A stretch of 64,000 bases of DNA, taken from positions 864,001 to 928,000 of the forward strand of contig CAXXHB010000003.1 in the NCBI GenBank assembly GCA_963664815.2, in the 5' to 3' direction. The position numbers and the translations under genes were made by a program. Shown here in pieces: positions 17,327-59,198 of the stretch. The notes under the pieces were generated by a model. The model searched no databases and was not told the origin of the DNA. It was given only the letters and a program-made list of their open reading frames with translations. Numbering within the stretch: position 1 is the stretch's first letter; every line of letters begins with the position of its first letter. The stretch is from Spirochaetota bacterium. Its GTDB lineage: Bacteria; Spirochaetota; UBA4802; UBA5550.

Positions 17327-18652
17327 TCAATTATATGTTTCAGAGCCGAGAGATGTTACAGGGGGCTCATTTTTAAGCCACCTGAGCGTGTTTTTAAACC
17401 GCATAATCTGAACAAAAAGGTCATGCTCCGGTTCTTCATCAGGTCTGTGCATGGGGCTTTTCCAGTAGAATGAGAGCCACTCCTGATTTCCTGAAAGTCC
17501 TGCCCTCTGCGAAAGGTCGAGAAACATTATAAGGTCAAGGACAATCGGCGCCGCAAGTATTGAATCGCGGCAGAGAAAGTTTACCTTTATCTGCATCGGG
17601 TAGCAGAGCCATCCGAATATGTCGATATTGTCCCATCCCTCCTTGTTGTCACCCCTTGGAGGGTAATAGTTAATTGTAACCTTGTGATGAAAGTCGCCAT
17701 ACAGGTCCGGGTATATTTCAGGCTGGCAGATCTGGTGCAGAACCGACAGTTTGCTTACCTCTTTTGATTTAAAAGATTCAGGGTCATCGAGTACCTCTCC
17801 ATCCCTGTTGCCGAGTATGTTTGTTGAAAACCATCCTTTCATGCCGAGCATCCTGGCCTTCAGGCCGGGGGCAAGGAGTGTTTTCATGAATGTCTGTCCC
17901 GATTTGAAGTCTTTTCCCCCCATGGGGGCTTTTCTTTTCTCTGCAAGTTCCCAGAATGCCGGGATATCGTTGCAGAGATTCGGCGCGCCGTTTGCGTATG
18001 GAATGCCCAGATCGAGAGCGGCGTAACAGTATATCATGCTGGGCGCTATTGCCGGGTGATTCTCCCTGAGCGCTTTTTCAAAATTGGCCAGCGTATCATG
18101 GACGCCTGGAACCATAACCTGGTATATCTCTGTGCTTGCACACCATACCATAACCATTCTGGAGAGGTTTTTCTCGTCTTTAAACCTGAGTATATCATCC
18201 TTGACCATCTGTGCGAGATCCCAGTGAGTTGCCCCCTGCTTTACATTTTTACCATCGAGGTTTTTAACAAAGTGCCTGTTGAAAACCGCTTTCCATGGTT
18301 TGATCTTTGCAAGCTCATCTTTCACAAGGTTAAGGTCATCTCTTGTAAGTACCTGGGCGTTAAGGGCTGATTCATAAACTGTATCCTCGAAAATATCCCA
18401 CCCGCCGAACTCCAGATCTTTAAGCTCTGCAAGTGGTATAAAGTCTTTAATGTTAACCTCTCTGGCCTGGTCGCCGGTGCCGACTCTCAGTTTTCCCATC
18501 TGTGACAGGGAGCCTATAGGTTTATTGAGGCCCTTTCTTATCATCATTACACCGGCAATAAATGTTGTGCTTACAGCTCCGAGGCCGGGTATAAGTACAC
18601 CGAGTTTCCCTTCGGGTTTATTAATTTCAATTTTATCAGATGCCACAATCAA
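17327..18652 (-). CDS. ino1: Myo-inositol-1-phosphate synthase
   Basis: GLGAVSTT, GGWDI, GKDFKSGQT, NILGNRDG, RDSILAAPIVLDL. Confidence 0.93.
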   Translation of the reverse strand: MIVASDKIEINKPEGKLGVLIPGLGAVSTTFIAGVMMIRKGLNKPIGSLSQMGKLRVGTGDQAREVNIKDFIPLAELKDLEFGGWDIFEDTVYESALNAQVLTRDDLNLVKDELAKIKPWKAVFNRHFVKNLDGKNVKQGATHWDLAQMVKDDILRFKDEKNLSRMVMVWCASTEIYQVMVPGVHDTLANFEKALRENHPAIAPSMIYCYAALDLGIPYANGAPNLCNDIPAFWELAEKRKAPMGGKDFKSGQTFMKTLLAPGLKARMLGMKGWFSTNILGNRDGEVLDDPESFKSKEVSKLSVLHQICQPEIYPDLYGDFHHKVTINYYPPRGDNKEGWDNIDIFGWLCYPMQIKVNFLCRDSILAAPIVLDLIMFLDLSQRAGLSGNQEWLSFYWKSPMHRPDEEPEHDLFVQIMRFKNTLRWLKNEPPVTSLGSETYN

Positions 18653-23361: not shown

Positions 23362-23428
23362 TTTTCAATCCCCCTGAAGAGAGCAGGGAAACAGAAAAAC
23401 CGCACAGGGGGTTTTCTTTTTCACTTTT

Positions 23429-23552
23429 GCCCTTCCATATGCCTGCGAGGTTAGCTGACGGGCTCGGGTATGGAAGTACCCTATTCTCTGAAGAAATACG
23501 CCCCGAAAAAACGGTTCCCCCGCATCCATACTTTGTATGAATCTCGGCGATA
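23429..23552 (-). ncRNA. c-di-AMP (ydaO/yuaA) riboswitch
   Basis: Minus strand reads CGCCGAGAUUC...GCGGGGGAACCG-U6-CGGGGCG...UAGGGUACUUCC..CCCGAGCCCGUCAGCUAACCUCGCAGGC, matching the ydaO consensus; located in the kup leader. Confidence 0.9.
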
Positions 23553-23803
23553 ATTTAATAAAGGGAATATATTTTTTAAACCGGTTATGAGTCAAGCTTT
23601 TTGAGATAAAAAGTAGTACAACAAAATGTAATGACGATTAAATATATGTAAAAAATGTATTATTTTCAATAAAATGCTCAAATTATTAAAAAAAAATATC
23701 ACTAAACCTCTGGTACTTTTTTTTTTATTTACATATAATTGAAAAAGTTCTTAAATTATTGAACTGGAAAGTCAGTACAATATATATCAAAAAGGAATAC
23801 TGG

Positions 23804-25216: not shown

Positions 25217-25322
25217 AGTAACAGTCTCCAGTTGGGGTTCGAAATGACAGTATATATTTTAAAATTTAAATGGATGATTGTATAAAAGTCAATAAACTGT
25301 GAATGGTGTGAAACTATCACTT

Positions 25323-27950
25323 ATGAGAGTAATAAATAAAATTATTTATATGGTTATGCTGCTTGCGGTATTCGGCTGCGGTAACTCCTTTTACGAGGCG
25401 CAGGATTACCTGACCGGCCCTGTAAGCGGCGTGGGACTTAAGAAGAGCACGACTATAGCGAGCGGCGGAACGGAGCAGCTTTCTGCGGTGGTTGTCCCCT
25501 CAAAGACATCGAATAAGGGTGTAACATGGACAAGCAGCGATAACTCGATAGTATCGGTGGATGCAAACGGCCTTGTTTCTGCGGTTGTTGTTGTGGCGCA
25601 TGGCTATACAAAGCAGGCAGTGATAACAGTAACTACGTCTGAGGGGGGTTACAGCACGCAGTGCACTGTAACGGTGGTCGAGAAGCCTGTTGCAGTAACA
25701 GGGGTTACGCTTAACAGGAGTTCGGCATACCTCTATTACCAGTCAGGGAGTATCTATTCAACGGATCAGCTTGCGGCAACAATTACACCATCTGCGGCTA
25801 CAAACCAGGCAATAACATGGTCCAGCGATGATCCCACAATAGCTTCGGTAAACAACGGCCTTGTGACTCCGAACAGAACCGGATCAACTGTAATAAGAGT
25901 GACAACAGCCGACGGAGGTTACAGCGCGTCGTGTACATATACGGTAACAGCTTCGCCGGTACTGGTGACCGGGATAAGCCTGAATAAATCAGCATTAACT
26001 CTGGCTGCGGGGTATTCCGAGACGCTGTTTGCAAGTATAGTCCCCACGACTGCGACAAACCAGACACTGACATGGACAAGCAGTACATCTGCAGCGACAG
26101 TGGATGCCCTCGGTAGTGTTACAGGAGTGTCGGCGGGAACATCTGTGATCAGGGCGACGGTGACTGAAAATATTGCATTATATGCCGAGGCGACAGTGAC
26201 GGTGGTATCCACGCCTGTTTCTGTGACGGGTGTAACAGTATCCCCGAAGACAGCCACGGTTGCGGTTGGCAGCCAGCAGACGCTTGCTGCGACGATAACG
26301 CCGTCAGGTGCAACAAACCAGAACCTTGAGTGGAACAGCAACAACAGCGGAATAGTATCTGTGAGCAGCAGCGGCATAATAACGGGAATAGCCGCGGGGA
26401 ACGCGAAGGTTACGGTAACAACGATCGACGGGAGTTACACAGCGACAAGCTATATTACAGTGTCATCGGAGCCTACATATGCGGTAACCTACTACCCGAA
26501 CAATCCTGCAACGGGTACAACAAGCGGATCGGTACCTGCGGATACAAACGGCTACATATCGGGGTCGACCGTGACGGTGAGGAACAACGGAACGATTGCG
26601 AATACATTGAATACGTTTACGGGTTGGAATACCCAGGCAGGGGGCGGAGGAACACCGTATTCCCCCGGCTCGACATTTACGATGGGGAGCGCGGATGTTT
26701 CGCTTTACGCCCAGTGGTCAACAGCTGCAACATATACGGTTACATACGACGGGAATTTCAATACAGGGGGCAGCGTACCGGCTGATTCAAGCTATACATC
26801 CGGCACAACGGTGACAGTGGCATCCAATTCCGGTTCGCTTGTAAGAAGTGGTTTTGTATTCGGCGGGTGGTATATAAGTTCCGGAACCATTCTCACCGCC
26901 GGGAGCGGAACATTCACCATGCCGGCTCATAACACTACACTGTATGCATACTGGATACCGGTATATACGGTGACATATATAGCCAACGGCAGTACTTCGG
27001 GAACAGTTCCCGTTGACAGTACTTCATATACTTCAGCTTCAACTGTTACTGTAAAAACCAATACAGGAACTCTGGCAAAGACAGGATACAGCCTTGCAGG
27101 TTGGTATACCGGTTCCGGTACATATTACTATCCTGGACAGACATTTACCATGGGGAGTTCAAATATTATTTTATATGCAAACTGGGGTGTAAAAACTGTC
27201 TATATTACATCAACTGATGTAACACTGACCAATAATTGTCTTGTTATAGTAAAAGCCTGGGGAGCAGGTGGACAGGGGTCAAGCAGTAACGGTTATGGAG
27301 GGAGCGGAGGATACTCCTATTCGGTATTTACAGCTTCTGCAAATGATGTACTGTATATAGTTGTCGGAGTAGGTGGGGGGAATACCCGTGATACAACAAT
27401 GCCGGCCCTTGGCGGGATAAATGGCCATGCAGGCGGAGGCGGGTCACTGGCTGCAATACTAAGCGGAGGTGTATATACGCTTAAATGCTGTGCCGGAGGA
27501 GGCGGCGGCGGAGGTGCCGGCGCTTATGTCGGCGGTAGCGGCGGAGGAGCATCAGGACAGGCGGGTATTTACAGTCCGACAGGAGGAAGTGGCGGCACAG
27601 GCGGCAGCGGAACTATCAGCAGCGGAAGTAATATGTTGTTAACATCTGCAACGCTTCTGGGACTCGGAGGAAATGGAGGTAATGCCGGCGGATTAAATGG
27701 GGGAGCAGGCGGTGGAGGATTCGGCGGCGGAGGGACTAATGGATATAGCACATTAAATCACGGCGGAAGCGGCGGAGGAGGATACGCTGTCGGGGATGCG
27801 GGTGTTACTATTACCGGGAATACTACCGGTTCTTCAACTACGCCGGGGAACAGTACGGATTCTGATATTCCTGACGGGTTTGCACAGGGTGGGTTTAATG
27901 CATCCGCCGGAGAGAATGGTTACGTTGTTGTATATATTATAAATCAGTAG
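25323..27950 (+). CDS. Surface lipoprotein: 4 Ig-like (Big_2) domains, 3 Listeria-Bacteroides repeats, glycine-rich C-terminal domain
   Basis: Lipobox VFGC; VTGVTL..ATNQ.xTWxS repeats; YTVTYDGN...FxGW...LYAxW repeats; KAWGAGGQG...GGGGGG tip. Confidence 0.9.
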   Translation: MRVINKIIYMVMLLAVFGCGNSFYEAQDYLTGPVSGVGLKKSTTIASGGTEQLSAVVVPSKTSNKGVTWTSSDNSIVSVDANGLVSAVVVVAHGYTKQAVITVTTSEGGYSTQCTVTVVEKPVAVTGVTLNRSSAYLYYQSGSIYSTDQLAATITPSAATNQAITWSSDDPTIASVNNGLVTPNRTGSTVIRVTTADGGYSASCTYTVTASPVLVTGISLNKSALTLAAGYSETLFASIVPTTATNQTLTWTSSTSAATVDALGSVTGVSAGTSVIRATVTENIALYAEATVTVVSTPVSVTGVTVSPKTATVAVGSQQTLAATITPSGATNQNLEWNSNNSGIVSVSSSGIITGIAAGNAKVTVTTIDGSYTATSYITVSSEPTYAVTYYPNNPATGTTSGSVPADTNGYISGSTVTVRNNGTIANTLNTFTGWNTQAGGGGTPYSPGSTFTMGSADVSLYAQWSTAATYTVTYDGNFNTGGSVPADSSYTSGTTVTVASNSGSLVRSGFVFGGWYISSGTILTAGSGTFTMPAHNTTLYAYWIPVYTVTYIANGSTSGTVPVDSTSYTSASTVTVKTNTGTLAKTGYSLAGWYTGSGTYYYPGQTFTMGSSNIILYANWGVKTVYITSTDVTLTNNCLVIVKAWGAGGQGSSSNGYGGSGGYSYSVFTASANDVLYIVVGVGGGNTRDTTMPALGGINGHAGGGGSLAAILSGGVYTLKCCAGGGGGGGAGAYVGGSGGGASGQAGIYSPTGGSGGTGGSGTISSGSNMLLTSATLLGLGGNGGNAGGLNGGAGGGGFGGGGTNGYSTLNHGGSGGGGYAVGDAGVTITGNTTGSSTTPGNSTDSDIPDGFAQGGFNASAGENGYVVVYIINQ

Positions 27951-29630
27951 ATGAGATATTATAAGTATTAATTTATGAATAAACTGAAAAAAACAGTACT
28001 GATGGTTATGCTGCTTGCAGTATTCGGCTGCGGCAACTCCTTTTACGAGGCGCAGGATTACCTGACCGGCCCTGTAAGCGGCGTGGGACTTAAGAAGAGC
28101 ACGACTATAGCGAGCGGCGGTACTGAGCAGCTTTCTGCGGTGGTTGTCCCCTCAAAGACATCGAATAAGGGTGTAACATGGACAAGCAGCGACAGCTCGA
28201 TAGTATCGGTGGATGCAAACGGCCTTGTTTCTGCGGTTGTTGTTGTGGCACATGGGCAGACAAAACAGGCAGTGATAACAGTAACTACGTCTGAGGGGGG
28301 TTACAGCACGCAGTGCACTGTAACGGTGGTTGAGAAGCCTGTTGCAGTAACAGGGGTTACGCTTAACAGGAGTTCGGCATACCTCTATTACCAGTCAGGG
28401 AGTATCTATTCAACGGATCAGCTTGCGGCAACAATTACACCATCTGCGGCTACAAACCAGGCAATAACATGGTCCAGCGATGATCCCACAATAGCTTCGG
28501 TAAATAACGGCCTTGTGACTCCGAACAGAACCGGATCAACTGTAATAAGGGTGACAACAGCCGACGGCGGCTACAGCGCGTCGTGTACATATACGGTAAC
28601 AGCTTCACCGGTACTGGTGACCGGAATAAGCCTCAATAAATCAGCATTAACTCTGGCTGCGGGGTATTCCGAGACGCTGTTTGCAAGTATAGTCCCCACG
28701 ACTGCGACAAACCAGACACTGACATGGACAAGCAGTACATCTGCAGCGACAGTGGATGCCCTCGGGAATGTTACAGGAGTGTCAGCGGGTAGTTCAACTA
28801 TAAGGGCGACTACAACTGACGGTTCTGCCAAATATGCCGAGGCGACAGTGACGGTGGTATCCACGCCTGTTTCTGTGACGGGTGTAACAGTATCTCCGAA
28901 GACAGCCACGGTGGCGATGGGGAGCCAGCAGACGTTGACTGCGACGATAACGCCGTCAGGTGCAACAAACCAGAACCTTGAGTGGAACAGCAACAACAGC
29001 GGAATAGTATCTGTGAGCAGCAGCGGCATAATAACGGGAATAGCCGCGGGGAACGCGAAGGTTACGGTAACCACGATCGACGGGAGTTACACAGCGACAA
29101 GCTATATTACAGTGTCATCGGAGCCTGCATATGCGGTAACCTACTACCCGAACAATCCTGCAACCGGTACAACAAGCGGATCGGTACCTGCGGATGCAAA
29201 CGGCTACATGTCGGGGGCGACCGTGACGGTGAGGAACAACGGAACGATTGTGAATACATTGAATACGTTTACGGGTTGGAATACCCAGGCAGGGGGGGGA
29301 GGAACAACGTATTCCCCCGGCTCGACATTTACGATGGGGAGCGCGGATGTTTCGCTTTACGCCCAGTGGACAACAGCTGCAACATATACGGTGACATACG
29401 ACGGTAATTTCAATACAGGGGGGAGTGTTCCGGCCGATGGGAACACATATACATCCGGGACAGCAGTGACTGTACTTGGCAATGTAAACAGTCTGGTGAG
29501 AACCGGTTTTGTTTTCGGCGGTTGGTATATGAGTTCCGGAACCATTCTCACCGCCGGGAGCGGAACATTCACCATGCCGGCATATAACGTGACACTGATG
29601 GCATACTGGATACCTGTTCATACCGTGACC
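25350..29630 (+). repeat. Large direct repeat: 25350-~26975 and 28002-~29630
   Basis: Constant offset 2652 (2655 after a codon indel); long identical nucleotide runs with short divergent patches. Confidence 0.9.
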
Positions 29631-30431
29631 TATATAGGTAACGGGAATACTTCGGGGAGTGTCCCCGTTGACAGCGTTTCATATACTGAGGGGGTTGATA
29701 CGGTAACTATATCGGCAAACACTGGAAGTCTTGCCGGTGAAATTATAACCGGTTCCGTGGCGACAAACAACCAGATATGCCAGCGATTTACCGGGTGGAA
29801 TACATCGCCTGACGGCAACGGTACATCATATTCAGCCGGATCAACTTTGACTATGGGTAAGGCAAATATGATATTGTACGCAGTTTATACAACAGATACA
29901 GCTGTAATAGGTAAAGTCGGCCCGGGGGGCGGATGGGTATTTTATGATGCAGGTTCAACTCAAACTGATGCCTATGGGAGCTGGCGGTATATGGAGTGTG
30001 CTGTTTCAAATGTTGCTGGATTTGGTTCTGTGGCCTATCCACCTTTTGAGTGGAGCACTATAGCGAATGCTTATGCAAATGGATCTACACCATTACCTGC
30101 TACATTAGGAACAGGGCGGGCGAATACATATACGATAGTTGCGCAAAACAGCTCTGCGGACAGTGCAGCGAAATTGTGTCAGGATTACCGGGGTGGGGGG
30201 CTCAGTGACTGGTTTCTGCCATCGCTTGATGAATTTAATGCTATCGCTGCAGCAACATCGACATCAGGACTTGGAAGCCTCTCCTGGGATCACTGGACTT
30301 CTAGTGAAATTTCCGAGACTGTTGCCTATGTAGTATGGGTGTCTTTTGATACAGATCATAAAACTTATTCAACAAAATTTGATTATATTAAAAGCAGTTT
30401 AAGGGGTGTGCGCCCTGTAAGGGCATTCTGA
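27975..30431 (+). CDS. Paralogous surface lipoprotein: same stalk with a DUF1566/Lcl-type (CLec-like) C-terminal domain
   Basis: Near-identical to the preceding gene over about 1.6 kb; tip IGKVGPGGGWVFYD...DWFLPSLDE...HWTSSE...VRPVRAF. Confidence 0.9.
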   Translation: MNKLKKTVLMVMLLAVFGCGNSFYEAQDYLTGPVSGVGLKKSTTIASGGTEQLSAVVVPSKTSNKGVTWTSSDSSIVSVDANGLVSAVVVVAHGQTKQAVITVTTSEGGYSTQCTVTVVEKPVAVTGVTLNRSSAYLYYQSGSIYSTDQLAATITPSAATNQAITWSSDDPTIASVNNGLVTPNRTGSTVIRVTTADGGYSASCTYTVTASPVLVTGISLNKSALTLAAGYSETLFASIVPTTATNQTLTWTSSTSAATVDALGNVTGVSAGSSTIRATTTDGSAKYAEATVTVVSTPVSVTGVTVSPKTATVAMGSQQTLTATITPSGATNQNLEWNSNNSGIVSVSSSGIITGIAAGNAKVTVTTIDGSYTATSYITVSSEPAYAVTYYPNNPATGTTSGSVPADANGYMSGATVTVRNNGTIVNTLNTFTGWNTQAGGGGTTYSPGSTFTMGSADVSLYAQWTTAATYTVTYDGNFNTGGSVPADGNTYTSGTAVTVLGNVNSLVRTGFVFGGWYMSSGTILTAGSGTFTMPAYNVTLMAYWIPVHTVTYIGNGNTSGSVPVDSVSYTEGVDTVTISANTGSLAGEIITGSVATNNQICQRFTGWNTSPDGNGTSYSAGSTLTMGKANMILYAVYTTDTAVIGKVGPGGGWVFYDAGSTQTDAYGSWRYMECAVSNVAGFGSVAYPPFEWSTIANAYANGSTPLPATLGTGRANTYTIVAQNSSADSAAKLCQDYRGGGLSDWFLPSLDEFNAIAAATSTSGLGSLSWDHWTSSEISETVAYVVWVSFDTDHKTYSTKFDYIKSSLRGVRPVRAF

Positions 30432-49721: not shown

Positions 49722-50537
49722 ATGGAAAAGAAGAATATGAGCATTGAAAGGAATGGGAATATTGCCATTGTAACAATTAACCGGCCGGAAAGAATGAATG
49801 CATTTGATGAATCTCTTTTCAGTAAGCTTGAAAAAGTGACTGAAGAACTGAAGCTCGATCTTCCTCGTGCTGTTGTGATTACCGGTGCAGGAGATAAATC
49901 TTTCAGTGCCGGATTTGATGTAAACCCTGATAACCCCATGGTGAAACGGATTATTGAGGCTGCGTCAAAAAAAGATCCAAAACCGGCAAGGGAACTTATT
50001 GAGTCAATAAGAAGAGCTGTTAATGGATTTGTTACTCTTCCTGTGCCGATAATAGCGGCACTGAACGGCAGTGCATACGGTGGAGGGGCAGAGCTGGCAA
50101 TGCAATGCGACATGAGGATTATTGATCCGGACTCTGTTATCTGTTTTTCAGAAACAAAACTTGGGCTTATGCCGGACTGGGGAGGCTGTGCCGCGCTGGC
50201 GCGGATAGCCGGATCATCCCTTGCATCGGAATTGATACTCACTGCAAGAAAAGTAAGTGCTGATGAATCACTCAGGACGGGTATAGTAAACAGGATAAGT
50301 GCAAAGGGGGATGTTCTTGGTGAAGCATTATCAATAGCCCGGACCATAGCAGCAAATGGTCCGCGTGCCGTGAGACATGCATTGGCTGTAATCAGAGAGT
50401 CACGGAACCTTACATTCCGGCAATCACTTGAGATGGAGTCTGAGCAGGCTGTATTGCTGATATCATCAGGTGAGTGCTTTCATGGTGTGGGAGCATTTCT
50501 GAATAAACAGGAACCTGTTTTTCCCGAAATAAATTAA
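49722..50537 (+). CDS. Enoyl-CoA hydratase/isomerase family
   Basis: FSAGFD, AYGGGAELA, ETKLGLMPDWGG. Confidence 0.92.
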   Translation: MEKKNMSIERNGNIAIVTINRPERMNAFDESLFSKLEKVTEELKLDLPRAVVITGAGDKSFSAGFDVNPDNPMVKRIIEAASKKDPKPARELIESIRRAVNGFVTLPVPIIAALNGSAYGGGAELAMQCDMRIIDPDSVICFSETKLGLMPDWGGCAALARIAGSSLASELILTARKVSADESLRTGIVNRISAKGDVLGEALSIARTIAANGPRAVRHALAVIRESRNLTFRQSLEMESEQAVLLISSGECFHGVGAFLNKQEPVFPEIN

Positions 50538-51027
50538 TGAAATCAGGGAAAAGTTGATCCTGCACTTCTTTTCTTTGAAGCACACCAGTCAACAGAGTCC
50601 ATCCCAGATGAACTGCTGAACTTCATCCTGCTGCATTTACAGCTGCATTTCCCGGCTCCGAATATTATGACCATAACATCTGCCATTTTATAGTATTACA
50701 TCTAAAACCATTTCTGTATGGTGATTAATATTTCTGTATAAAGGATTTTCTATCGAATTGTTCATTTATATTCTTTCCTGTTAAATGTATTATTTTATCA
50801 TATATCTGATCTGTTTTTTAGTATGGTTTCATATTTGCATTCAGATTTTATGTCATCCGTTAAGATACTTGACAAAATTCATTATTTATATAATTAAGTC
50901 GATTAAATTAGTAGTATATCAATCTTCTGAGTTTAAACTATAATCAATTTCTTTCAGAGCAATGTTTTTTACAGTCTAAAGTATTAAATGAGTTATTTTT
51001 ATAAAAAATTTTTTTTCTTATTTTTTA

Positions 51028-51074
51028 TTGACAAAATAATACGGCAATTAAATTACTACTAAAACAATAGTAAT
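51028..51074 (+). promoter_or_regulatory. Promoter with palindrome, candidate Rrf2 (CymR-like) operator
   Basis: TTGACA at 51028; ATTACTA-N9-TAGTAAT at 51052-51074. Confidence 0.45.
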
Positions 51075-51101
51075 GATAGTGATTAGAATAGGGGGTATAA
51101 A

Positions 51102-52400
51102 ATGAGTAAAATAGATGCGCAATTAAGAAGGGAGTCATTAGTACTTCATGCAGGTCAGGAACCGGATCCTGTTACCGGCTCAAGAGCAGTTCCAATTTAT
51201 CAGACTACATCATATCAGTTCAATAATACTGATCATGCTGCGGCACTTTTCGGTTTAACGGAATTTGGAAATATCTATACACGTCTGATGAATCCCACAA
51301 CAGATGTTCTTGAGAAGAGAATAGCAGCGCTTGAGGGTGGTATCGGAGCGCTTGCTACAGCAAGCGGCCAGGCGGCCATATCGCTTTCATTGCTGAACAT
51401 TGCCAGATCAGGAGATGAAATAGTCTCTGCGGATAATCTTTATGGCGGAACATATAACCTTTTCCATAACACATTTGCTAAATTTGGTATTAAAGTAAAT
51501 TTTGTTAAATCAAATGACCTTGATGCAATTGAAAAGGCAATTACTTCCAAAACAAAGGCTGTTTATGCGGAGTCAATTGGTAATCCAAAACTCGATGTGG
51601 CAAATCTGGAGGGCATATCGGCGATTGCACATAAACATGGTATCCCATTTGTCCTGGATAATACTGTTTCTCCATATTTACTGAGACCTTTTGATTATGG
51701 CGTTGATATCATAGTATATTCTGCAACGAAGTTTATAGGTGGACATGGAACAACAATGGGTGGAGTAATTGTAGATTCCGGCAAGTTCAATTGGGATAGC
51801 GGGAAATTCCCATTAATCTCAGATCCGGAGCCGAGTTACCATGGGCTTAAGTTTATTGAAGCGCTGGCGCCTATTGGTAATATTGCGTATATACTGAAAG
51901 CAAGAGTAACCCTGCTCAGGGACCTTGGCCCGGCAATATCTCCTATAAGTTCATTCCTGCTGCTTCAGGGACTTGAAACATTACATCTTAGAATGCCCAG
52001 GCATGCGGAAAATGCCCTTGCTGTTGCTAAACACCTTGAAAACCATAAGTCAGTCGCATGGGTTGCCTATCCTGGTCTTGATAAAAGTCCTGATAAAAAG
52101 CTTGCAGATAAATATCTGAAAGGCGGTGCTGGCGCGATAATAGGTTTTGGTATAAAAGGCGGGATTGAAGCGGGTAAGAAATTTATAAATTCACTTGAAC
52201 TCATATCACATCTTGCGAACGTGGGGGATGCGAAAACTCTTGCTATACATCCGGCGAGTACTACTCACCAGCAGCTTTCACCTGATGAACAGGCTGCAAC
52301 AGGTGTAACTCCGGATTTTATCAGGCTTTCAATCGGGATTGAGCATATTGATGATATACTGGCTGATATAAACCAGGCACTGGAAAAAGCAGTTAAATAG
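51102..52400 (+). CDS. metY: O-acetylhomoserine/O-acetylserine sulfhydrylase
   Basis: [50 protein letters not shown]. Confidence 0.95.
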
Positions 52401-52469
52401 ATTAATTTATTTTATATGTGGGTATAATGCAATCTCCCATGAAGAGTTTAAAACAAATGAGGTAACAGT

Positions 52470-53399
52470 ATGGCAAGAATATTTGATGACATAACAAAAA
52501 CAATTGGGAATACACCGCTTGTAAGGATTAATAAACTGAATACGGCTAAAGATGTGACAATTCTTGCGAAATTGGAGTCGTTTAATCCATTATCGAGTGT
52601 TAAAGACAGGCTTGGTGCAGCCCTTATAGAAGCTGCCGAAAAGAACGGACTTATTAAAGAGGGAACAACCATTATAGAACCTACCAGTGGTAATACCGGT
52701 ATCGCGCTTGCATTTGTCAGCGCCGCAAAAGGGTACAGGCTTATACTTACAATGCCTGAAACAATGAGCATCGAAAGGAGGCAGCTTCTTAAAATATTTG
52801 GTGCTGAACTTGTTCTTACTGACGGGAAACTGGGGATGAAAGGCGCTATAGCTAAAGCTGTAGAGCTTCAAAAGGAGATTCCGAACTCATTTATACCGCA
52901 ACAGTTTGACAACCCTGCAAATCCGGAAATTCACAGAAAAACAACAGCAGAGGAGATCTGGAATGATACAGATGGAGCGGTTGATATTGTAATAGGTGGA
53001 GTTGGTACCGGTGGTACAATTACAGGGGTTGGAGAGGTTCTTAAGAAAAGAAAATCTTCAGTAAAAATAATAGCTGTAGAACCGGTAGATTCACCTGTCC
53101 TTTCCGGAGGAACACCCGGCCCGCATAAAATCCAGGGTATTGGAGCGGGTTTTATCCCTCAGGTTTATAATAAGGATATTGTCGATGAAATAATACAGGT
53201 AGCACATACTGATGCAGGCGACACCTCAAGAAGACTTGCAAAAGAGGAGGGTGTTCTTGTGGGAATTTCAAGTGGTGCAGCGCTTTTTGCGGCTTTATCT
53301 GTTGCCAAAAGAAAAGAATCATCCGGAAAAACAATTGTTGTGGTACTTCCTGATACTGGAGAAAGATATCTTTCGACATGGCTCTTTGATTTACAATAA
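52470..53399 (+). CDS. cysK: Cysteine synthase A
   Basis: [49 protein letters not shown]. Confidence 0.97.
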
Positions 53400-53588
53400 T
53401 CTGATCAGGATATAAAAAAATCTTATGATAAACAAATGCTAGAAGGCGGTCACGCCGGCCGTCTTGATGGCTCCCGCTTAGATCCTGTTATAAAGTGTAA
53501 AATGTTGTAACATTTTATAAAGAGTTATTGACGAATACACTACCATTTTAATTATAAAGATAGTAATTTAAATTTAAGGAGTTGTATA

Positions 53589-54038
53589 ATGCGCCTTTCA
53601 ACACGTTCAAGATACGGAGTTCGATTAATGCTTGCTCTTGCTGCAAATAAACAGAAAAAACCGGTTTTTCTGAAAGATATAGCAAATTCTGAAGAGATAT
53701 CAGAAAAGTATTTAAGTCAGATTATAATTCCATTAAAGGGAAAAGGTCTTGTAACTACATTCAGGGGCGCTCATGGGGGTTATCTTTTAAGCAGGCCGGC
53801 ATCTGAAATTTCTTTAAGAGAAATTATCGAACCGTTAGAAGGTGATCTAAGTTTAGTAGATTGCGTTAATAATCCGGGAGTTTGCGACAGGGCAAATGCA
53901 TGTGCTTCAAGGGAAGTCTGGGATGAGTTAAGTTCTCTATTGCTGAATTTTCTCGATACATTTACGCTTGAGGATCTTATTAAGAAATCGAGTAAAATCA
54001 CTAATCACAACAGTTTTAAAACAGATTATTCAATTTAA
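53589..54038 (+). CDS. Rrf2 family regulator (CymR/IscR-like)
   Basis: MRLSTRSRYG, ISEKYLSQI, RGAHGGY, three Cys. Confidence 0.93.
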   Translation: MRLSTRSRYGVRLMLALAANKQKKPVFLKDIANSEEISEKYLSQIIIPLKGKGLVTTFRGAHGGYLLSRPASEISLREIIEPLEGDLSLVDCVNNPGVCDRANACASREVWDELSSLLLNFLDTFTLEDLIKKSSKITNHNSFKTDYSI

Positions 54039-54073
54039 TAAAATGGATATTCAGAAATGAACATAACAGCGTC

Positions 54074-54483
54074 GGCGTAAAAAAGCCCTCTCATGGAGTG
54101 TGGATTTTCAAAAGAGGAGATAAGAAATATTTCAAAAGATATGCCCCCCTTCATGGGACAGACCATCAAATCCATGTTTGGCCAGCGGAATCCCATATTG
54201 AAACCGTATTATCATGGAAAAGCTTAAGATGATTGCTGAAGCAGAAAACTTTATGCGAGAATTAGGATTCAATGTAGTAAGAGTGAGACATCATGATCTG
54301 ATGGCAAAAATTGAAGTGCCAGTCGCGGATATAAAAAAATTATTCTCGGATGATTTAAATGATAAAGTAAGTAACAGGTTGAAAGAGCTTGGATTTAAAT
54401 GGGTTTCTATAGATATCCAGGGGTACAAGCAGGGTAATCTGAACAAGGCACTTGATATTAAAAAAATTAAAACGGATAGTTAG
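54074..54483 (+). pseudogene. larE: LarE-like ATP-dependent sulfur transferase, C-terminal remnant
   Basis: SPLMECGFSKEEIR, frameshift, PSWDRPSNPCLASGIPY, TGA, then ...VRVRHH...IEV...GYKQGNLN; N-terminal PP-loop half is absent. Confidence 0.8.
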
Positions 54484-54484
54484 A

Positions 54485-55564
54485 ATGAAAATAGCAGTAG
54501 GTATGAGCGGTGGTGTGGATTCTTCAACAGCCGCGCTTATTCTAAAGCAGCAGGGGCATGAGGTAATAGGAATTACAATGTCTATATGGGACGGGACATT
54601 TGCGTTTTCGCATTCCGGAAAGAATGCATGCTATGGCCCTGATGAAAAGGTTGATATTGCGGAAGCTGAAAAGGTTTGTGAGCAGATTGATATTCCTTTT
54701 CATGTTATTGACTGTTCTAAGGACTATAAACAAACAGTGATTGAATATTTCAGGAATGAGTACATCAACGCAAGAACTCCAAATCCATGTATAGTTTGTA
54801 ACCAAAAAATAAAATTCGGAAATCTACTTACAAAAGCAAAAGCTTCAGGTATAGATTTTGATAAATTTGCAACCGGGCATTATGCAAAAATAGTACATGA
54901 TGAAGAAACAGACCGTTTTCTGCTGAAAAAAGGGGCAGATAAGAATAAAGATCAGTCGTATTTTCTATATAAACTCTCTCAACAGCAGTTTGCAGGGACT
55001 ATTTTACCACTGGGGGGGATGACCAAGGATGAAGTCAGGAGTATTGCCAGATCAGCCGGTCTGACAGTATCTGATAAGGAAGAGAGCCAGGATTTTTACA
55101 GTGGAGATTACAGGAAACTTCTTAATGTCACAGACACTGAAGGTGAAATCGTTGATATGAACGGTCATGTAATAGGCAAGCACAAAGGTATATGGAATTA
55201 TACTCCCGGGCAAAGACGTGGACTTGGAATTGCAAACAGCGAACCGTTATATGTTGCAAGGATTGAGAGGGGCTCTAACAGAGTTATTGCTGGTACAAAA
55301 AATGATATCTTCAGATCTTCGTTTCAGGTTAATAATGTCAACTGGATTGCTCTTCATAAAGTATCTAAGATATTTTATGCTTCAGTAAAAACAAGGTCAA
55401 CCCAGTCCGGTGATGATGCGAAAATTGAACTTATAAATTCATTTAATGTAAAGGTGAATCTTGCAAATAATAGTACTTCTATTTCTCCGGGTCAATCAGC
55501 TGTTTTTTATGACGGTGATATTGTTATCGGTGGAGGAATAATCGAGCAGGATAACGGAAAATGA
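54485..55564 (+). CDS. mnmA: tRNA 2-thiouridine(34) synthase
   Basis: GMSGGVDSS, TPNPCIVCN, ATGHYA, KDQSYFL, YTPGQRRGLGI, PGQSAVFY. Confidence 0.95.
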   Translation: MKIAVGMSGGVDSSTAALILKQQGHEVIGITMSIWDGTFAFSHSGKNACYGPDEKVDIAEAEKVCEQIDIPFHVIDCSKDYKQTVIEYFRNEYINARTPNPCIVCNQKIKFGNLLTKAKASGIDFDKFATGHYAKIVHDEETDRFLLKKGADKNKDQSYFLYKLSQQQFAGTILPLGGMTKDEVRSIARSAGLTVSDKEESQDFYSGDYRKLLNVTDTEGEIVDMNGHVIGKHKGIWNYTPGQRRGLGIANSEPLYVARIERGSNRVIAGTKNDIFRSSFQVNNVNWIALHKVSKIFYASVKTRSTQSGDDAKIELINSFNVKVNLANNSTSISPGQSAVFYDGDIVIGGGIIEQDNGK

Positions 55565-55887
55565 TAAGCACTCAAAATGATAGATATTATAAGCAGATTC
55601 TTATCCCTCAGATTGGTGCGGATAGTCAGGGAAAACTTGGTAAATCGACGGTTGTAATTGCGGGATGTGGCGCGCTTGGAACATAATTTGCAAGCATAAT
55701 GGTTAGATCGGGAGTTGGCAATGTTGTTATTATAGATCGTGATTAAATTGATTACGATAACCTCCCGAGGCAAATACAATTTGATGAAGATGATATCAGA
55801 AAAGGGCTCCCAAAATCGGTTGCTGCAGCTGATAAATTCAGGCTGGTTAATTCAGCAGTAAAAATTATTCCGGTTGTTGAGGATTTA
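55561..55887 (+). pseudogene. ThiF/MoeB family adenylyltransferase pseudogene (not in ORF track)
   Basis: DRYYKQILIPQIG..SQGKL...IAGCGALGT*...IIDRD*IDYDNLPRQ; in-frame TAA at 55684 and 55744; 3' half missing. Confidence 0.88.
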
Positions 55888-56134
55888 CATATTCAACTCT
55901 TTCCGGATTCATGCGGTTTTGGAGCCTTTGAAAACAGATTTAATATCTTTTTAAAATTAAATTGCTGAATTATCTTTGAAATTCATTATTTGTAATAAGA
56001 GTTTATATCTGTTCAGTAAATACATTAAATCTTAAATATTAAACAAAAATAGCATTTTTTATTTTATTATTGAAATTTTAAATTTAAATAATTCTATTCT
56101 GTACAATTTAAAATTATTCAGGCGGAGTAAGACA

Positions 56135-58069
56135 TTGGAATACTGGAAAGAACATATAGAACATATGGCTCAGGGAATCAGGGTCAGGGTACTTGAGCAT
56201 ACAATTGAAAATAATGGCGGGTATCTGAGTCAGGCCTGCTCTTCGGCTGAGATTTTGGCGTGCCTTTATGGCAGAATACTCAAACTCGGTAATGTGGTTA
56301 TACCGAAACTTCCTGAAAAATTTAGCGGAGTTCCAGGACCGGAGAATAAAAACTACCGGAATGGATCATCATTTCATGGTGAGAAATCTTCATATTACGA
56401 CAGGTTTTTTTTATCTCCTTCTCAATATTCTCTCGTACTATATGCTGCTTTGATTGAAGCGGGGCGTATGGACAAAAATGGTTTGGCTGAATTTAATATA
56501 GACGGCAGTACAGTAGAAATGATAGGTGCGGAACATTCTCCGGGAATGGAGATAATGTCCGGTTCATTAGGCCAGGGTATTAGTCAGGCTTTCGGAATTG
56601 CAATGGCAAGAAAACTGAAAAATGAAACCGGCAGAGTGGTTATTTTCATGTCTGACGGCGAGTTCCAGATCGGTCAGACATGGGAAGCATTACAGGCAGC
56701 ATCATTTCATAAACTGAATAATGTAATCATTTTTGTTGATGTTAATGGGTTCCAATGTGACGGACGGATGGCAGATGTAATGAATATTGAACCGCTGGAT
56801 AAACGTCTTGAAGCGTTCGGCATCAGAACTTTTAGAATTAACGGTCACGATATAGATGCACTTGTCACTCACGGGATGATGGAGCCGGACAGCAGCAGGC
56901 CAACATGTATACTTTGCGATACTATCCCATATCGTGGAATTGAAGTATTGAAGAAACGGGAACCCAAATTTCACTATGTCAGATTTGCAGGAGCTGAAGA
57001 GAAAAGAGAACTTCTGGAATATTATAAAACTGTAGTAAAACCAACTGAAGAAAAAGAGAATGATTTAATTTTAAGCAGGGTGCATGCGAAGAATCTTGTA
57101 ACCTGGGCTAAGGATAAGCCGGAGGTCGTAGTCCTCTCGGCTGATCTGACTGGCTCGACGGAGATTGATAACTTCAGGGACATGTATCCCGACAGGTTTT
57201 TTTCAATGGGTATAGCTGAACAGAATATGCTTTCATTTGCAGGGGGACTTGCGAGAGAGGGATATATACCATTTATACATACTTTTGCTGTGTTTATATA
57301 CAGAAGGGCATTTGATCAGATAGCCATGTCTGTAGCTTATCCTAATTTGCCTGTGAAGATGTTCGGGTTTCTCCCCGGAATAATGACACCTGGGGGAGCA
57401 ACTCACCAGGCAATTGAAGACGTTTCTGTAATGCGCTCTCTTCCTAATATGACAATACTTGATTGTGGTGACGCAACAGATGTTGAATCAGTGCTTGATG
57501 CCGCATTGAGTGTAAATGGCCCTGTTTATATAAGAATGTTACGCGGTGAAATACCGCGATTATTTGATAAATCCCAGCCGATGATCATCGGAAAATCGAG
57601 AAGATTATCGTATGGAGATGATATCGTGCTGGTTACTTCCGGAATATGCACGGAGGAAGCGCTTCGTGCAATTGTGGCGCTCAGAAGATATAATATCGGA
57701 ATAAGTCATTTCCATTTAATAACGTTAAAACCATTTAATGATCAGGAAATCATTCAGGCCATTGAACAATCGAAGTATGGTGTAATAACTATGGAAAACC
57801 ATACAATCGTTGGTGGAATTGGTACTATTATTGCGGAGAAGATGGCAGAACTGGGAATAAATAAGAAACTGTTTCGTATAGGACTTAATGATACATTTGT
57901 TCATGGAGCGAGTAAGGACTATCTGATGAAAAAGTATGGTCTTGATGCGATGAAACTTGTACGAACAATTGAATCGATTATAAAACAGAGACCGCTGATA
58001 ACAGAGGATGATCTTGGTGCTATAAGAACCATGGCCGTTCATTCTATTGCAAAACCTGAGGCGCTTTAG
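56135..58069 (+). CDS. Transketolase-family ThDP enzyme, fused N- and C-subunits
   Basis: GSLGQG, SDGEFQIGQTWEA...VDVNG, SADLTGS, MGIAEQN, GGATHQA. Confidence 0.9.
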   Translation: MEYWKEHIEHMAQGIRVRVLEHTIENNGGYLSQACSSAEILACLYGRILKLGNVVIPKLPEKFSGVPGPENKNYRNGSSFHGEKSSYYDRFFLSPSQYSLVLYAALIEAGRMDKNGLAEFNIDGSTVEMIGAEHSPGMEIMSGSLGQGISQAFGIAMARKLKNETGRVVIFMSDGEFQIGQTWEALQAASFHKLNNVIIFVDVNGFQCDGRMADVMNIEPLDKRLEAFGIRTFRINGHDIDALVTHGMMEPDSSRPTCILCDTIPYRGIEVLKKREPKFHYVRFAGAEEKRELLEYYKTVVKPTEEKENDLILSRVHAKNLVTWAKDKPEVVVLSADLTGSTEIDNFRDMYPDRFFSMGIAEQNMLSFAGGLAREGYIPFIHTFAVFIYRRAFDQIAMSVAYPNLPVKMFGFLPGIMTPGGATHQAIEDVSVMRSLPNMTILDCGDATDVESVLDAALSVNGPVYIRMLRGEIPRLFDKSQPMIIGKSRRLSYGDDIVLVTSGICTEEALRAIVALRRYNIGISHFHLITLKPFNDQEIIQAIEQSKYGVITMENHTIVGGIGTIIAEKMAELGINKKLFRIGLNDTFVHGASKDYLMKKYGLDAMKLVRTIESIIKQRPLITEDDLGAIRTMAVHSIAKPEAL

Positions 58070-58079
58070 TAAAAAATAT

Positions 58080-59198
58080 ATGGAAAGAAGAATTTCTGGT
58101 GAAAGATTTATTGTCTCATATAATCTCTCCGGGCGTGAGACTGATGCACTTGCTGCCGCAAAAGATATATGCATAGAACAAACGGTGGAGTTTCCGGATG
58201 AACTTATAAATGATAAGTTTATCCGTGATAATATATTTGGCAGACTAGAATCTTTTAATCGAATTAAAGATGATCTTTTCAGCGCTGATATCAGTTTTGC
58301 TGTAGAAACTACAGCTTATGAATTTACACAGTTTTTGAATGTGATATTCGGTAATATCAGTCTTAAACCGGGGATTATCATAGAAAACATTATATTACCG
58401 GACAGTTTTTTAACAGATTTCAAAGGTCCTCGGTTTGGGATTTCCGGACTTCGTAATATACTTAATGTTTTTGACAGGCCATTTATTGCATCTGCAATAA
58501 AACCGATGGGTATGTCCTCTGTACAGTTTGCTGAGCTGACAGCTCTTTTCTCTAAGGGAGGAATTGATATAATCAAAGATGATCATGGACTTTCCAGTCA
58601 GCCATTTTCAACATTCAAAGAGAGAGTTAAGTTATGTTCAGATGTTCTTAATTCTACATGTGAGTGTAAGACTCTCTATTTCCCGAACATAACGGCCCCT
58701 TTTTCTGAGATCATTGATAGGGCATATTATGCAAAAGAACAGGGTGCTGGTGGAATACTGATAGCACCTGCAATAACAGGTTTTGACTGTATGAAATATC
58801 TGGCTGATGATGAGAATTTCGGTCTTCCGATAATGAGTCATCCAGCCTTCATTGGATCATACCTCTCCGGAACTTCAGGGTTTTCACATGGAGTACTGCT
58901 TGGAACTTTAATGAGGTTATCCGGAGCTGATATAGTCGTTTACCCGAATTTTGGAGGGAGATTTTCATTTTCGAAAGATGAATGCCTTGATATTTCTGTT
59001 AAATGCAGAAATGATATGAAACATATAAAAACTATATTGCCTTCACCAGGCGGAGGTATGAACTTTTCAAATATTCCGGAAATGACTTCATTCTACGGAA
59101 AAGATGTAATTTATCTTATGGGGGGAGGACTTTTTAAAAGAAGCCCTGACCTTGTGGAGAACTGCCGGGAACTCTCGCGTCTTGTCTACGGGGACTAA
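58080..59198 (+). CDS. RuBisCO-like protein (form IV), R. rubrum MTRu-1-P isomerase-like clade
   Basis: ICIEQTVEFP, FGNISL, SAIKPMG, GGIDIIKDDHGL, PNFGGRF, PSPGGGM; short (about 370 aa). Confidence 0.9.
   Translation: MERRISGERFIVSYNLSGRETDALAAAKDICIEQTVEFPDELINDKFIRDNIFGRLESFNRIKDDLFSADISFAVETTAYEFTQFLNVIFGNISLKPGIIIENIILPDSFLTDFKGPRFGISGLRNILNVFDRPFIASAIKPMGMSSVQFAELTALFSKGGIDIIKDDHGLSSQPFSTFKERVKLCSDVLNSTCECKTLYFPNITAPFSEIIDRAYYAKEQGAGGILIAPAITGFDCMKYLADDENFGLPIMSHPAFIGSYLSGTSGFSHGVLLGTLMRLSGADIVVYPNFGGRFSFSKDECLDISVKCRNDMKHIKTILPSPGGGMNFSNIPEMTSFYGKDVIYLMGGGLFKRSPDLVENCRELSRLVYGD

Follow-up and report, generated by a model that had tools for sequence, protein, structure and literature searches.

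Why should a gene for a transketolase-like enzyme be placed directly in front of a gene for a RuBisCO-like protein (RLP)? The question is raised by a stretch of 64,000 nucleotides (nt) from a Spirochaetota bacterium (GenBank assembly GCA_963664815.2, contig CAXXHB010000003.1, positions 864,001 to 928,000 of the forward strand; this whole stretch is referred to as the window), in which the following elements are found:

56135..58069, plus strand: gene of a fused, transketolase-like enzyme dependent on thiamine diphosphate (ThDP), 644 amino acids (aa), assigned by Pfam domains, family alignments and scores below the NCBIfam cut-offs
58070..58079, plus strand: A-rich spacer of 10 nt (taaaaaatat) between the TAG stop codon and the ATG of the RLP gene, read directly from the sequence
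58080..59198, plus strand: gene of a form IV RLP of the short DeepYkr type, 372 aa, putative 5-methylthioribulose-1-phosphate 1,3-isomerase, assigned by PF00016, the match to 3qfw_A, motifs and tree

With moderate confidence, the two-gene operon is interpreted here as a cupin-independent branch of the salvage of 5'-methylthioadenosine (MTA) and methylthioribose (MTR), possibly also of 5'-deoxyadenosine. Very probably the module belongs to MTA/MTR or 5-deoxypentose salvage in the wider sense. That the ThDP enzyme cleaves the RLP product to glyceraldehyde-3-phosphate and a C2 unit is suggested by its sequence and appears somewhat probable. Synteny and the type of the RLP lend good support to the pathway assignment, while the reaction itself is put forward as a hypothesis.

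The ThDP gene starts with TTG, with GGAG located 7 nt upstream, and ends with the TAG at 58067-58069. The start codon that yields an RLP of 372 aa is backed by homologues of 371-376 aa with 99-100% coverage. The 10-nt spacer implies that both genes are co-transcribed, and their translation may be coupled. A preliminary description of this DNA, made from the sequence alone, had reported a two-gene operon with this gap, and this was borne out (genes at 56135-58069 and 58080-59198). The peptide motifs given there are likewise all present in the translations, namely GGYLSQACS, FLSPSQYS, SDGE and THQ in the ThDP enzyme and EQTVEFP, KDDHG, PNFGGRF and PGGGM in the RLP.

Conservation of the gene pair and type of the RLP

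For the survey of related loci, 20 homologues of the ThDP enzyme were aligned, and the alignment was used as a pattern to scan contigs of one genome per species. At least 596 stretches matched, of which at least 565 proved to be relatives of the ThDP enzyme; all locus counts given in the following refer to the best 80 of these. The nearest loci (86-76% identity) belong to Leptospirales and other Spirochaetota genome bins. More than eight phyla are named in the record titles of the loci, including Spirochaetota, Nitrospirota, Bacillota, Chloroflexota, Planctomycetota, Actinomycetota, Elusimicrobiota and Pseudomonadota. An RLP gene is encoded on the same strand in 57 of the 80 loci, 51 of which have it within 250 nt downstream of the ThDP gene; in the six others, all of them Nitrospirota, it is located 545-7902 nt downstream. 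Clustering of all neighbouring open reading frames (ORFs) revealed no other gene family near the RLP in frequency. The pairing of ThDP enzyme and RLP is far beyond chance, and what had been noticed in a single genome is, with 51 closely linked pairs, a conserved arrangement.

No RLP gene is present in 23 loci, nine of which end less than 1200 nt past the ThDP gene and are not judgeable. Among the RLP-less loci, the ThDP gene is partial or broken in L056, L065, L073 and L074, and also in the short locus L075. The ThDP enzyme is encoded by one ORF in 23 loci, by two ORFs (about 300 and 335 aa) in 49 and by four pieces in two; in six, only one partial ORF was matched. The fused form, considered atypical in the preliminary description, is thus the minority form of this family, the split one being commoner. 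A tblastn search of plasmids with the RLP returned 329 records, about twenty of them at 43-46% identity.

The RLP matches PF00016 only (92 bits). Its best relative of solved structure is 3qfw_A (231.7 bits over residues 8-362), which we take to be an RLP of Rhodopseudomonas palustris, followed by 4nas (149.5 bits), 3fk4 (137 bits) and the MtnW structure 2oek (131 bits). The scores are below the cut-offs of both MtnW models (NF007095, 203 versus 409 bits; TIGR03332, 155 versus 514) and of the OiaX model (NF042437, 66 versus 700). Carboxylase residues are altered: compared to the form I enzyme of Cupriavidus necator, TKPKLG is changed to IKP-MG, KDDE to KDDH, HLHRAG to MSHPAF and VGKLEG to GGRFSF. 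The one-residue deletion in KP-xG, the KDDH and the PNxGGRF are common to the RLP of the window, the other ThDP-linked RLPs and the cupin-linked RLP of locus L085, and the alignment to 3qfw shows them as well. None of these features is present in MtnW, OiaX and form I, all three of which carry KDDE. The length of the protein fits the cupin-linked type as well (about 350-380 aa). The likeness to the short RLP of Rhodospirillum rubrum claimed earlier is therefore upheld, as the three motifs are shared with a cupin-linked RLP of the R. rubrum arrangement.

Reference sequences for a tree were taken from annotated plasmid genes. These were the Terrarubrum RLP (L085), which is followed by cupin and cysE as in the R. 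rubrum arrangement, Bacillus velezensis mtnW, Rhizobium OiaX, the form I enzyme of C. necator and two RLPs next to four-carbon acid kinases. In the resulting tree of 63 rows, rooted on form I, the RLP of the window and the cupin-linked RLP fall into one clade of 57 rows with a support of 92 in the Shimodaira-Hasegawa-like approximate likelihood ratio test (SH-aLRT). Of the 57 locus RLPs, this clade contains 52 (the other five, whose alignments were shorter than 300 aa, were left out), together with three ThDP-linked plasmid RLPs and the cupin-linked one. The RLP of a Vibrio plasmid forms the next branch (92), and MtnW (96) and the OiaX-type group (99) are placed outside. A form IV phylogeny, which had been suggested as a check, thus groups the RLP with the cupin-linked type and apart from MtnW and OiaX, in a tree that comes from a quick search with one or few members per outgroup, contains several long branches and includes no R. 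rubrum sequence. RLP1 of R. palustris, a member of the DeepYkr clade, is a 5-methylthioribulose-1-phosphate 1,3-isomerase with a kcat of 1.3 per s, and its cupin partner frees methanethiol from 1-methylthioxylulose-5-phosphate (PMC5893883, in part).

Active site of the ThDP enzyme

Three Pfam families are matched by the ThDP enzyme: Transketolase_N (residues 88-264 only), Transket_pyr and Transketolase_C. No match to the XFP family is among the Pfam matches at E ≤ 1e-3. The protein is composed of an N-terminal PP domain, a variable linker (about 290-315), the Pyr domain, the C domain and a conserved tail, VHSxAKxEAL; the linker is the sole poorly conserved part in the 20-row alignment. With the curated cut-offs of NCBIfam release 20, the enzyme is below all four transketolase equivalog models (NF004559, 357 versus 488 bits; NF004556, 234 versus 575; NF004558, 114 versus 788; TIGR00232, 110 versus 682) and also below the models of DXP synthase, DXP being 1-deoxy-D-xylulose-5-phosphate (TIGR00204, 209 versus 466; NF003933, 180 versus 395). 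The identity to canonical transketolase (TKT) is only 25%.

In transketolases, His69 and His103 contact the C1 hydroxyl of the donor, while His30 and His263 contact the C3 hydroxyl. The substrate-recognition residues listed for the yeast enzyme are His30, His263, Arg359, Ser386, His469, Asp477 and Arg528, and a cluster of five histidines is described (PMC3352088, in part). For comparison, 81 members of the ThDP family were aligned, and a second alignment was made with a canonical transketolase found on locus L073. The cofactor site is retained: the Mg/ThDP ligand Asp174 is kept in 81 of 81 sequences, Asn196 is invariant in the 20-row alignment and the activating Glu362 is kept in 77 of 77. Also retained are His238 (yeast His263; 81/81), His424 (yeast His481; 77/77) and the phosphate ligands Arg/Lys315 (yeast Arg359; 70/76) and Ser341 (yeast Ser386; 76/77). 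A further phosphate ligand, Arg470 (yeast Arg528), is invariant in the 20-row alignment and stands opposite the canonical Arg; Arg467 is kept in 74 of 75 sequences.

The remaining part of the donor site is altered. SGHPG of canonical TKT is changed to GGYLS, with Tyr30 in place of His30 in all 81 sequences. LSxGH is changed to LSP(S/A)(Q/H), where position 97, corresponding to canonical His69, is Gln in 61 sequences, His in 19 and Ser in one. The GHPE loop with His103 is deleted, and an invariant His134 is located just past the gap. THDS is changed to GFLP, by which the phosphate-binding His469 is lost and Phe/Leu found instead, and EDGPTHQ is changed to PGGATHQ, so that Asp477, which reads the C4 hydroxyl, is Gly in 77 of 77 sequences. 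Altogether, three of the seven residues of the yeast list are replaced across the whole family, which the two alignments show to be a sharply delimited subfamily. Judged by these positions, the ThDP enzyme looks cofactor-competent but retargeted, with a remodelled donor site. The loss of donor-sugar histidines pointed out in the preliminary description is complete for His30, but not for the equivalent of His77, which is still His in 19 of the 81 sequences. The SDGE in place of GDGE, also listed there as a departure, is present but harmless, and SDG is not diagnostic, because the transketolase of Mycobacterium tuberculosis naturally contains SDG for GDG and has normal kinetics with no loss of activity (PMC3352088, in part). 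The ThDP enzymes of Ochrobactrum anthropi, Ponticoccus and Vibrio show the same signature, which is hence a property of the whole RLP-linked family and not only of members linked to methionine salvage (mtn) genes.

These data bear on the simplest explanation, namely that an ordinary transketolase of the pentose phosphate pathway lies beside the RLP by chance. The three transketolase domains are present, and relatives are labelled 'transketolase' in databases. The scores below all four equivalog cut-offs, the low identity to canonical TKT, the family-wide replacement of three substrate residues and the adjacency of an RLP in 51 of 80 loci stand against it, and we consider this explanation highly improbable.

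Canonical transketolase has nothing equivalent to the C-terminal tail (last 10 codons, 58040-58069), which is conserved across phyla (His636 in 62 of 72 sequences, Lys640 in 65 of 72). The tail may contribute residues to the active site that stand in for the lost His469 and Asp477. An AlphaFold2 model of the enzyme, calculated with the 20-row alignment, reached a mean predicted local distance difference test (pLDDT) score of 66.3 and a predicted template modelling (pTM) score of 0.53, with values below 50 in the Pyr domain and in the tail (632-644); at this poor confidence, neither a fold search nor the placement of the tail can be based on the model. Two cysteines, Cys35 (56237-56239, in GGYLSQACS) and Cys208 (56756-56758, in NGFQCDG), are invariant in the alignment of 20 sequences. 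To our knowledge, canonical transketolase has no Cys at the matching places.

Neighbouring genes and the putative pathway

Genes of MTA salvage are found directly beside the pair in several relatives, as a survey of the neighbourhoods, likewise suggested earlier, revealed for Clostridium ljungdahlii and for alphaproteobacterial plasmids. The order in C. ljungdahlii (L037) is RbsB-like binding protein, ATP-binding cassette (ABC) ATPase, permease, MtnK, MtnA, TKT-N, TKT-C and RLP, with MtnK and MtnA well above their cut-offs (TIGR01767, 432.6 versus 275 bits; TIGR00512, 427 versus 279). According to the PGAP annotation, mtnK, mtnA, transketolase, transketolase C and RLP genes follow each other on pOANT04 of Brucella (Ochrobactrum) anthropi and on a plasmid of Rhizobium rosettiformans, while a Ponticoccus plasmid carries the order amidohydrolase, mtnA, molybdopterin oxidoreductase, ThDP enzyme, transketolase C and RLP. 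Among the 80 loci, MtnA-like ORFs were detected in nine and MtnK-like ORFs in four by BLAST with the L037 proteins, of which only those of L037 were checked against curated models. A gene for the nucleoside phosphorylase PpnP is located just upstream of the pair in L027.

In the window, genes of sulfur metabolism are encoded upstream of the pair:

51102..52400, plus strand: O-acetylhomoserine sulfhydrylase MetY (TIGR01326, 662 bits, cut-off 495)
52470..53399, plus strand: cysteine synthase CysK (TIGR01139, 467 bits, cut-off 351)
53589..54038, plus strand: Rrf2-family regulator, CymR/IscR-like (TIGR00738, 132 bits, cut-off 73; below the CymR equivalog cut-off)

The metY gene, previously located about 4 kb upstream, ends 3.7 kb in front of the ThDP gene, and MetY is the likely sink for methanethiol. 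In the Leptospirales relatives cysK is kept upstream of the pair, in L001 together with metY, and the Rrf2 regulator occupies the same position in L001 and L002. Pyridoxal phosphate (PLP)-dependent enzymes of Cys/Met metabolism are encoded near the pair in the window and in eight of the 80 loci (L001, L013, L017, L022, L026, L029, L056, L070), and CysK in the window and in five (L001, L002, L003, L005, L070). Since these cases come from about four separate lineages, the enrichment of sulfur genes is modest and not independent per locus. No cupin domain was found by Pfam in the scanned window ORFs of at least 89 aa, and BLAST and tblastn searches with the RLP-linked cupin of L085 (Terrarubrum) gave no match in the window or in the 80 loci, in agreement with the absence of a cupin reported earlier.

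From family membership and synteny, the RLP would shift the carbonyl group of 5-methylthioribulose-1-phosphate and thereby form 1-methylthioxylulose-5-phosphate, like the DeepYkr RLPs of R. rubrum and R. palustris. The ThDP enzyme would then bind this product via the 5-phosphate, ThDP would attack C2, and after breakage of the C2-C3 bond glyceraldehyde-3-phosphate would leave. Of the residues needed for this second step, those binding the cofactor, the activating Glu and three of four phosphate ligands have been retained. The remodelling of the residues holding the hydroxyl groups at C1, C3 and C4 is as expected for a donor with SCH3 or H instead of OH at C1. Phosphoketolase loses water and sulfoacetaldehyde acetyltransferase loses sulfite from the ThDP carbanion, both ending as acetyl-ThDP. 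In the third and most speculative step, the ThDP-bound 2-methylthio-1-hydroxyethyl carbanion might similarly expel methanethiolate by beta-elimination, and the acetyl-ThDP formed would end as acetate or acetyl-phosphate, while MetY would join methanethiol and O-acetylhomoserine to methionine. This elimination is favoured by the analogy to the two enzymes named and by the MetY/CysK context, but as the ending of the pathway it is tentative. A 'methylthio-phosphoketolase' in the full sense, converting 1-methylthioxylulose-5-phosphate to glyceraldehyde-3-phosphate, free methanethiol and either acetyl-phosphate or acetate as the acetyl unit, is conceivable, with doubt prevailing. Alternatively, the carbanion might be protonated and 2-methylthioacetaldehyde released. 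Taken as a whole, the interpretation given in the preliminary description is partly supported: it gained from the conserved module, the mtn synteny in relatives and the type of the RLP, and lost its arguments from the gene fusion, the SDG and one missing His. Of the outcomes named there as refuting, neither a clustering of the RLP with enolase- or apionate-type RLPs nor a lack of conservation of the pair was observed.

As MtnK- and MtnA-type enzymes reportedly also serve 5-deoxyribose (attributed to Beaudoin 2018 and North 2020), the module might mainly be directed at 5'-deoxyadenosine and 5-deoxyribose. The RLP would then convert 5-deoxyribulose-1-phosphate to 1-deoxyxylulose-5-phosphate, and the ThDP enzyme, acting like a DXP synthase in reverse, would yield glyceraldehyde-3-phosphate and a hydroxyethyl unit. 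The resemblance of the ThDP enzyme to DXP synthase (209 bits with TIGR00204) and the PGAP name of one orthologue, DXP synthase N-terminal domain protein, fit this explanation. However, the score is far under the cut-off of 466, the Asp conserved in DXP synthase and TKT is Gly, the neighbours (MetY, CysK, a corrinoid protein) indicate sulfur metabolism, and DXP is itself useful, so that its disposal would be needless. A role mainly in deoxypentose salvage is hence regarded as unlikely.

Several findings weigh against the route proposed here, in which the RLP product of MTA salvage is cleaved by the ThDP enzyme. No assayed member of the ThDP family was found in the literature. The loss of Asp477, the ligand of the C4 hydroxyl, and of one phosphate ligand is not predicted for a substrate resembling xylulose-5-phosphate. 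The gene order mtnK-mtnA-tkt-rlp places the ThDP enzyme before the RLP, unlike the order of the pathway. Owing to the quick search, the few outgroup members and the long branches, only the coarse placement of the RLP in the tree is trustworthy. Of the 71 loci that extend 1200 nt or more beyond the ThDP gene, 14 contain no RLP. Most loci have the pair as a solitary operon without mtn genes, and none of mtnP, mtnN, mtnK and mtnA was found among the scanned ORFs of the window. Finally, genes that point to other substrates or products are encoded beside the pair in some relatives.

The first case of this kind is the plasmid of Vibrio nigripulchritudo (L084, 4028-8647), which encodes a ThDP enzyme with 51% identity and the full signature, an RLP that is divergent (31% identity, with KEDD for KDDH), an FGGY sugar kinase, a sugar ABC transporter and a short-chain dehydrogenase/reductase (SDR), and no mtn genes. 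This cluster, in which the module has probably been adapted to another substrate, indicates that the module is not tied to methylthio sugars everywhere. It could be taken further as a sign that the pair is a general module of sugar phosphate catabolism, consisting of a ketose-phosphate isomerase and a C2-transferring transketolase, whose sugar varies by cluster and which has no role in the salvage of S-adenosylmethionine (SAM) by-products here. The lack of nearby mtn genes in most loci and in the window and the sugar regulators of the SorC or DeoR type in L031, L058 and L059 are in line with such a module. On the other hand, the Vibrio RLP is the most divergent one and lies outside the main clade, whereas the RLP of the window has the full KDDH/PNxGGRF signature of MTA-type RLPs; mtnA and mtnK are the only pathway genes recurring directly beside the pair, and the Leptospirales relatives have retained the upstream sulfur genes. 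We therefore rate a general sugar module as quite improbable.

The second case concerns the fate of the C2 unit. In L042 and L077, the operon itself includes genes for a class II aldolase and an SDR, and two plasmids (L081, L082) carry such genes close to the cluster. In an alphaproteobacterial genome bin (L058, 9989-13748), the ThDP enzyme (with GCYLSQ) is followed by an iron-containing alcohol dehydrogenase (Fe-ADH) and a class II aldolase in the absence of an RLP, with a SorC-type regulator upstream. These neighbours fit an aldehyde product at least as well as the elimination of methanethiol. Pathway and C2-C3 cleavage would be the same as proposed above, with the C2 unit protonated and released as 2-methylthioacetaldehyde (from MTA) or acetaldehyde (from 5'-deoxyadenosine via DXP). 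In this case, the module would represent a counterpart of the dihydroxyacetone phosphate (DHAP) shunt that yields glyceraldehyde-3-phosphate; a dehydrogenase would take the aldehyde, and the sulfur would be recovered later. Besides the genes just named and the SDR beside the Vibrio cluster, it speaks for this ending that it serves both SAM by-products. MetY would still be useful, as R. palustris also forms methanethiol downstream of 2-methylthioethanol (PMC5893883, in part). Against it, a dehydrogenase is absent from the operon in most loci, including that of the window, and dehydrogenase neighbours are outnumbered by the sulfur amino acid neighbours (window and eight of 80 loci). In addition, a thioether beta to the ThDP carbanion should eliminate readily, judging by the established chemistry of phosphoketolase. 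Release of the aldehyde is a possible ending, held with considerable doubt.

Returning to the operon of the window, a putative promoter was found in the AT-rich gap upstream of it:

55928..55957, plus strand: sigma-70-like match TTGAAA-18-TAAAAT (consensus match only, 10 of 12 positions)

This match is weak evidence, because the region holds 23 such sites compared to 16.1 expected. A scan for terminators gave two sites, both within genes, which is fewer than in shuffled sequences and uninformative. No riboswitch or leader was detected upstream of the operon with Rfam at the gathering threshold over the whole window, which contains only a distant c-di-AMP riboswitch; a search for RNA families by E-value over 50400-56300 gave a single match at chance level. 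Downstream of the pair, a gene for a DUF6803 membrane protein is located on the opposite strand. No four-carbon acid sugar kinase was found in the window.

The genes upstream of the pair are, in this order, metY, cysK, the Rrf2 regulator gene, a LarE fragment, mnmA and a decayed ThiF-like frame. The LarE fragment is an ORF of 89 aa (54214-54483, plus strand) matching only positions 186-259 of 259, the last 74, of the model for LarE sacrificial sulfur transferase; it overlaps the start of mnmA by its last 32 nt and looks like the remnant of a gene in a sulfur-transfer cluster. Directly downstream of mnmA, a ThiF/MoeB/HesA-like frame (55561-55968, plus strand) is interrupted by two in-frame TAA codons, one following GCGALGT and the other IIDRD, and ends after about 135 codons, and is probably a decayed gene. 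Reassignment of the stop codon was considered and rejected; recoding is unlikely because this frame is also truncated and the neighbouring genes are normal under table 11. A perfect palindrome, ATTACTA-N9-TAGTAAT (51052-51074, plus strand), is located about 30 nt upstream of the metY start and may be an operator of the Rrf2 regulator; the half-site TAGTAAT also occurs upstream of the Rrf2 gene (about 53560-53567). An operator common to the promoters of metY, rrf2 and the ThDP gene was dropped, since by eye nothing like the metY palindrome lies upstream of the ThDP gene.

In four of the six Nitrospirota loci with a distant RLP, a gene of the CMD/AhpD family is inserted between the ThDP gene and the RLP gene:

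L013, 11990-12451: CMD/AhpD-family gene
L014, 12014-12490: CMD/AhpD-family gene
L019, 12060-12518: CMD/AhpD-family gene
L040, 13518-13871: CMD/AhpD-family gene

Further inserted genes encode a transposase and a DNA methylase in L040 and DNA methylase, ParA-like and HEPN proteins in L014. The weak NCBIfam matches of the CMD/AhpD proteins are to AhpD domains of proteins whose names refer to the metabolism of methyl-selenium and arsenic. In a Bacillota genome bin (L070), genes for DUF1638, a B12-binding corrinoid protein and DUF2325 are located upstream of the pair (8028-9893) and genes for a Cys/Met PLP enzyme and CysK downstream (14890-17534), a cluster that resembles the methyl-sulfur gene clusters discussed in PMC10418091 (in part). 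Elsewhere in the window, the c-di-AMP riboswitch mentioned above (23425-23559, minus strand; 94.8 bits, threshold 38) lies directly upstream of a gene for a KUP-type potassium transporter (21463-23361, minus strand). Two neighbouring paralogous proteins of 883 and 818 aa with Big_2 and Listeria-Bacteroides repeat domains are encoded at 25299-30431 (plus strand) and preceded by an fn3-domain protein; these are likely surface proteins.

Comparison with known systems

For MTA and 5'-deoxyadenosine, the map of anaerobic salvage is incomplete, the routes known so far being the MTA-isoprenoid shunt, with RLP and cupin, and the DHAP shunts. NCBIfam release 20 contains no specific model for the ThDP enzyme or the RLP, and the PGAP names are generic. 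A full-text literature search returned no paper tying a transketolase to an RLP or to MTA salvage, mention in specialist papers, supplements or theses not being excluded; in the part available of a 2018 review of methionine salvage paralogues, the word 'transketolase' occurs 0 times (PMC6302742). The synteny may already be known to specialists.

The module would be a third solution for the anaerobic salvage of SAM by-products, using a distinct branch of the transketolase family. If the proposed reaction holds, RLP, methylthio-phosphoketolase and MetY together would provide anaerobes with a methionine salvage that requires neither oxygen nor a thiol and possibly yields ATP. Several hundred bacterial species, at least, would encode this route, and the pair would form a module that can be reused for 1-substituted ketose phosphates. 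The relatives, at least 565 in number, include the industrial acetogen C. ljungdahlii, gut Lachnospiraceae (Hungatella hathewayi), Nitrospirota, Chloroflexota and rhizobial plasmids. A function is thereby proposed for a large subgroup of RLPs now annotated as 'RuBisCO large subunit C-terminal-like domain-containing protein' or miscalled MtnW enolase. The same applies to ThDP proteins now annotated as 'transketolase', 'thiamine pyrophosphate-dependent enzyme' or 'DXP synthase N-terminal domain-containing protein'.

With canonical and split transketolases (human TKT, 4kxu; Carboxydothermus hydrogenoformans, 6yaj/6yak), the ThDP enzyme shares the three-domain fold, the Mg/ThDP ligands, the Glu and the Arg/Ser/Arg phosphate site, and split and fused forms occur in its family as well. 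It differs in having Tyr for His30, Gln/His for His69, the GHP loop deleted, His469 and Asp477 lost and an extra tail. DXP synthase has the same set of domains and a partial hidden Markov model match, and the GG-x-L opening of the first motif is presumably similar in both; the ThDP enzyme is set apart from it by the score (209 versus 466 bits) and by the Gly in place of the conserved Asp before THQ. The resemblance to phosphoketolase and sulfoacetaldehyde acetyltransferase is chemical only (a beta leaving group and acetyl-ThDP) and does not extend to membership by sequence.

The DHAP shunt (MtnP or MtnN/MtnK, MtnA and the class II aldolase Ald2) is similar in its logic, since a 5-substituted pentulose is phosphorylated, isomerised and split to a triose phosphate and a C2 fragment carrying the methylthio or methyl group. 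Clusters of ABC transporter, MtnK and MtnA genes are found in relatives of the window pair, too. In contrast to the shunt, the pair would split its substrate by ThDP chemistry after the carbonyl shift by the RLP, with glyceraldehyde-3-phosphate instead of DHAP as product; in L042 and L077, aldolase and TKT-RLP pair are both present.

The closest relation is seen to the MTA-isoprenoid shunt of R. rubrum and R. palustris, comprising a DeepYkr RLP, the cupin 1-methylthioxylulose-5-phosphate methylsulfurylase and O-acetylhomoserine sulfhydrylase. The RLPs are of the same type (about 370 aa) and in one clade, relatives of the window pair have the same upstream enzymes (MtnK or phosphorylase, then MtnA), and MetY is the likely sink. 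The difference is that the window pair has no cupin and the ThDP enzyme takes its place beside the RLP; as the predicted products are glyceraldehyde-3-phosphate and a C2 unit and not DXP, there would be no link to isoprenoids, and no thiol co-substrate would be needed. The module is thus most likely the first half of the MTA-isoprenoid shunt joined to an uncharacterised ThDP enzyme.

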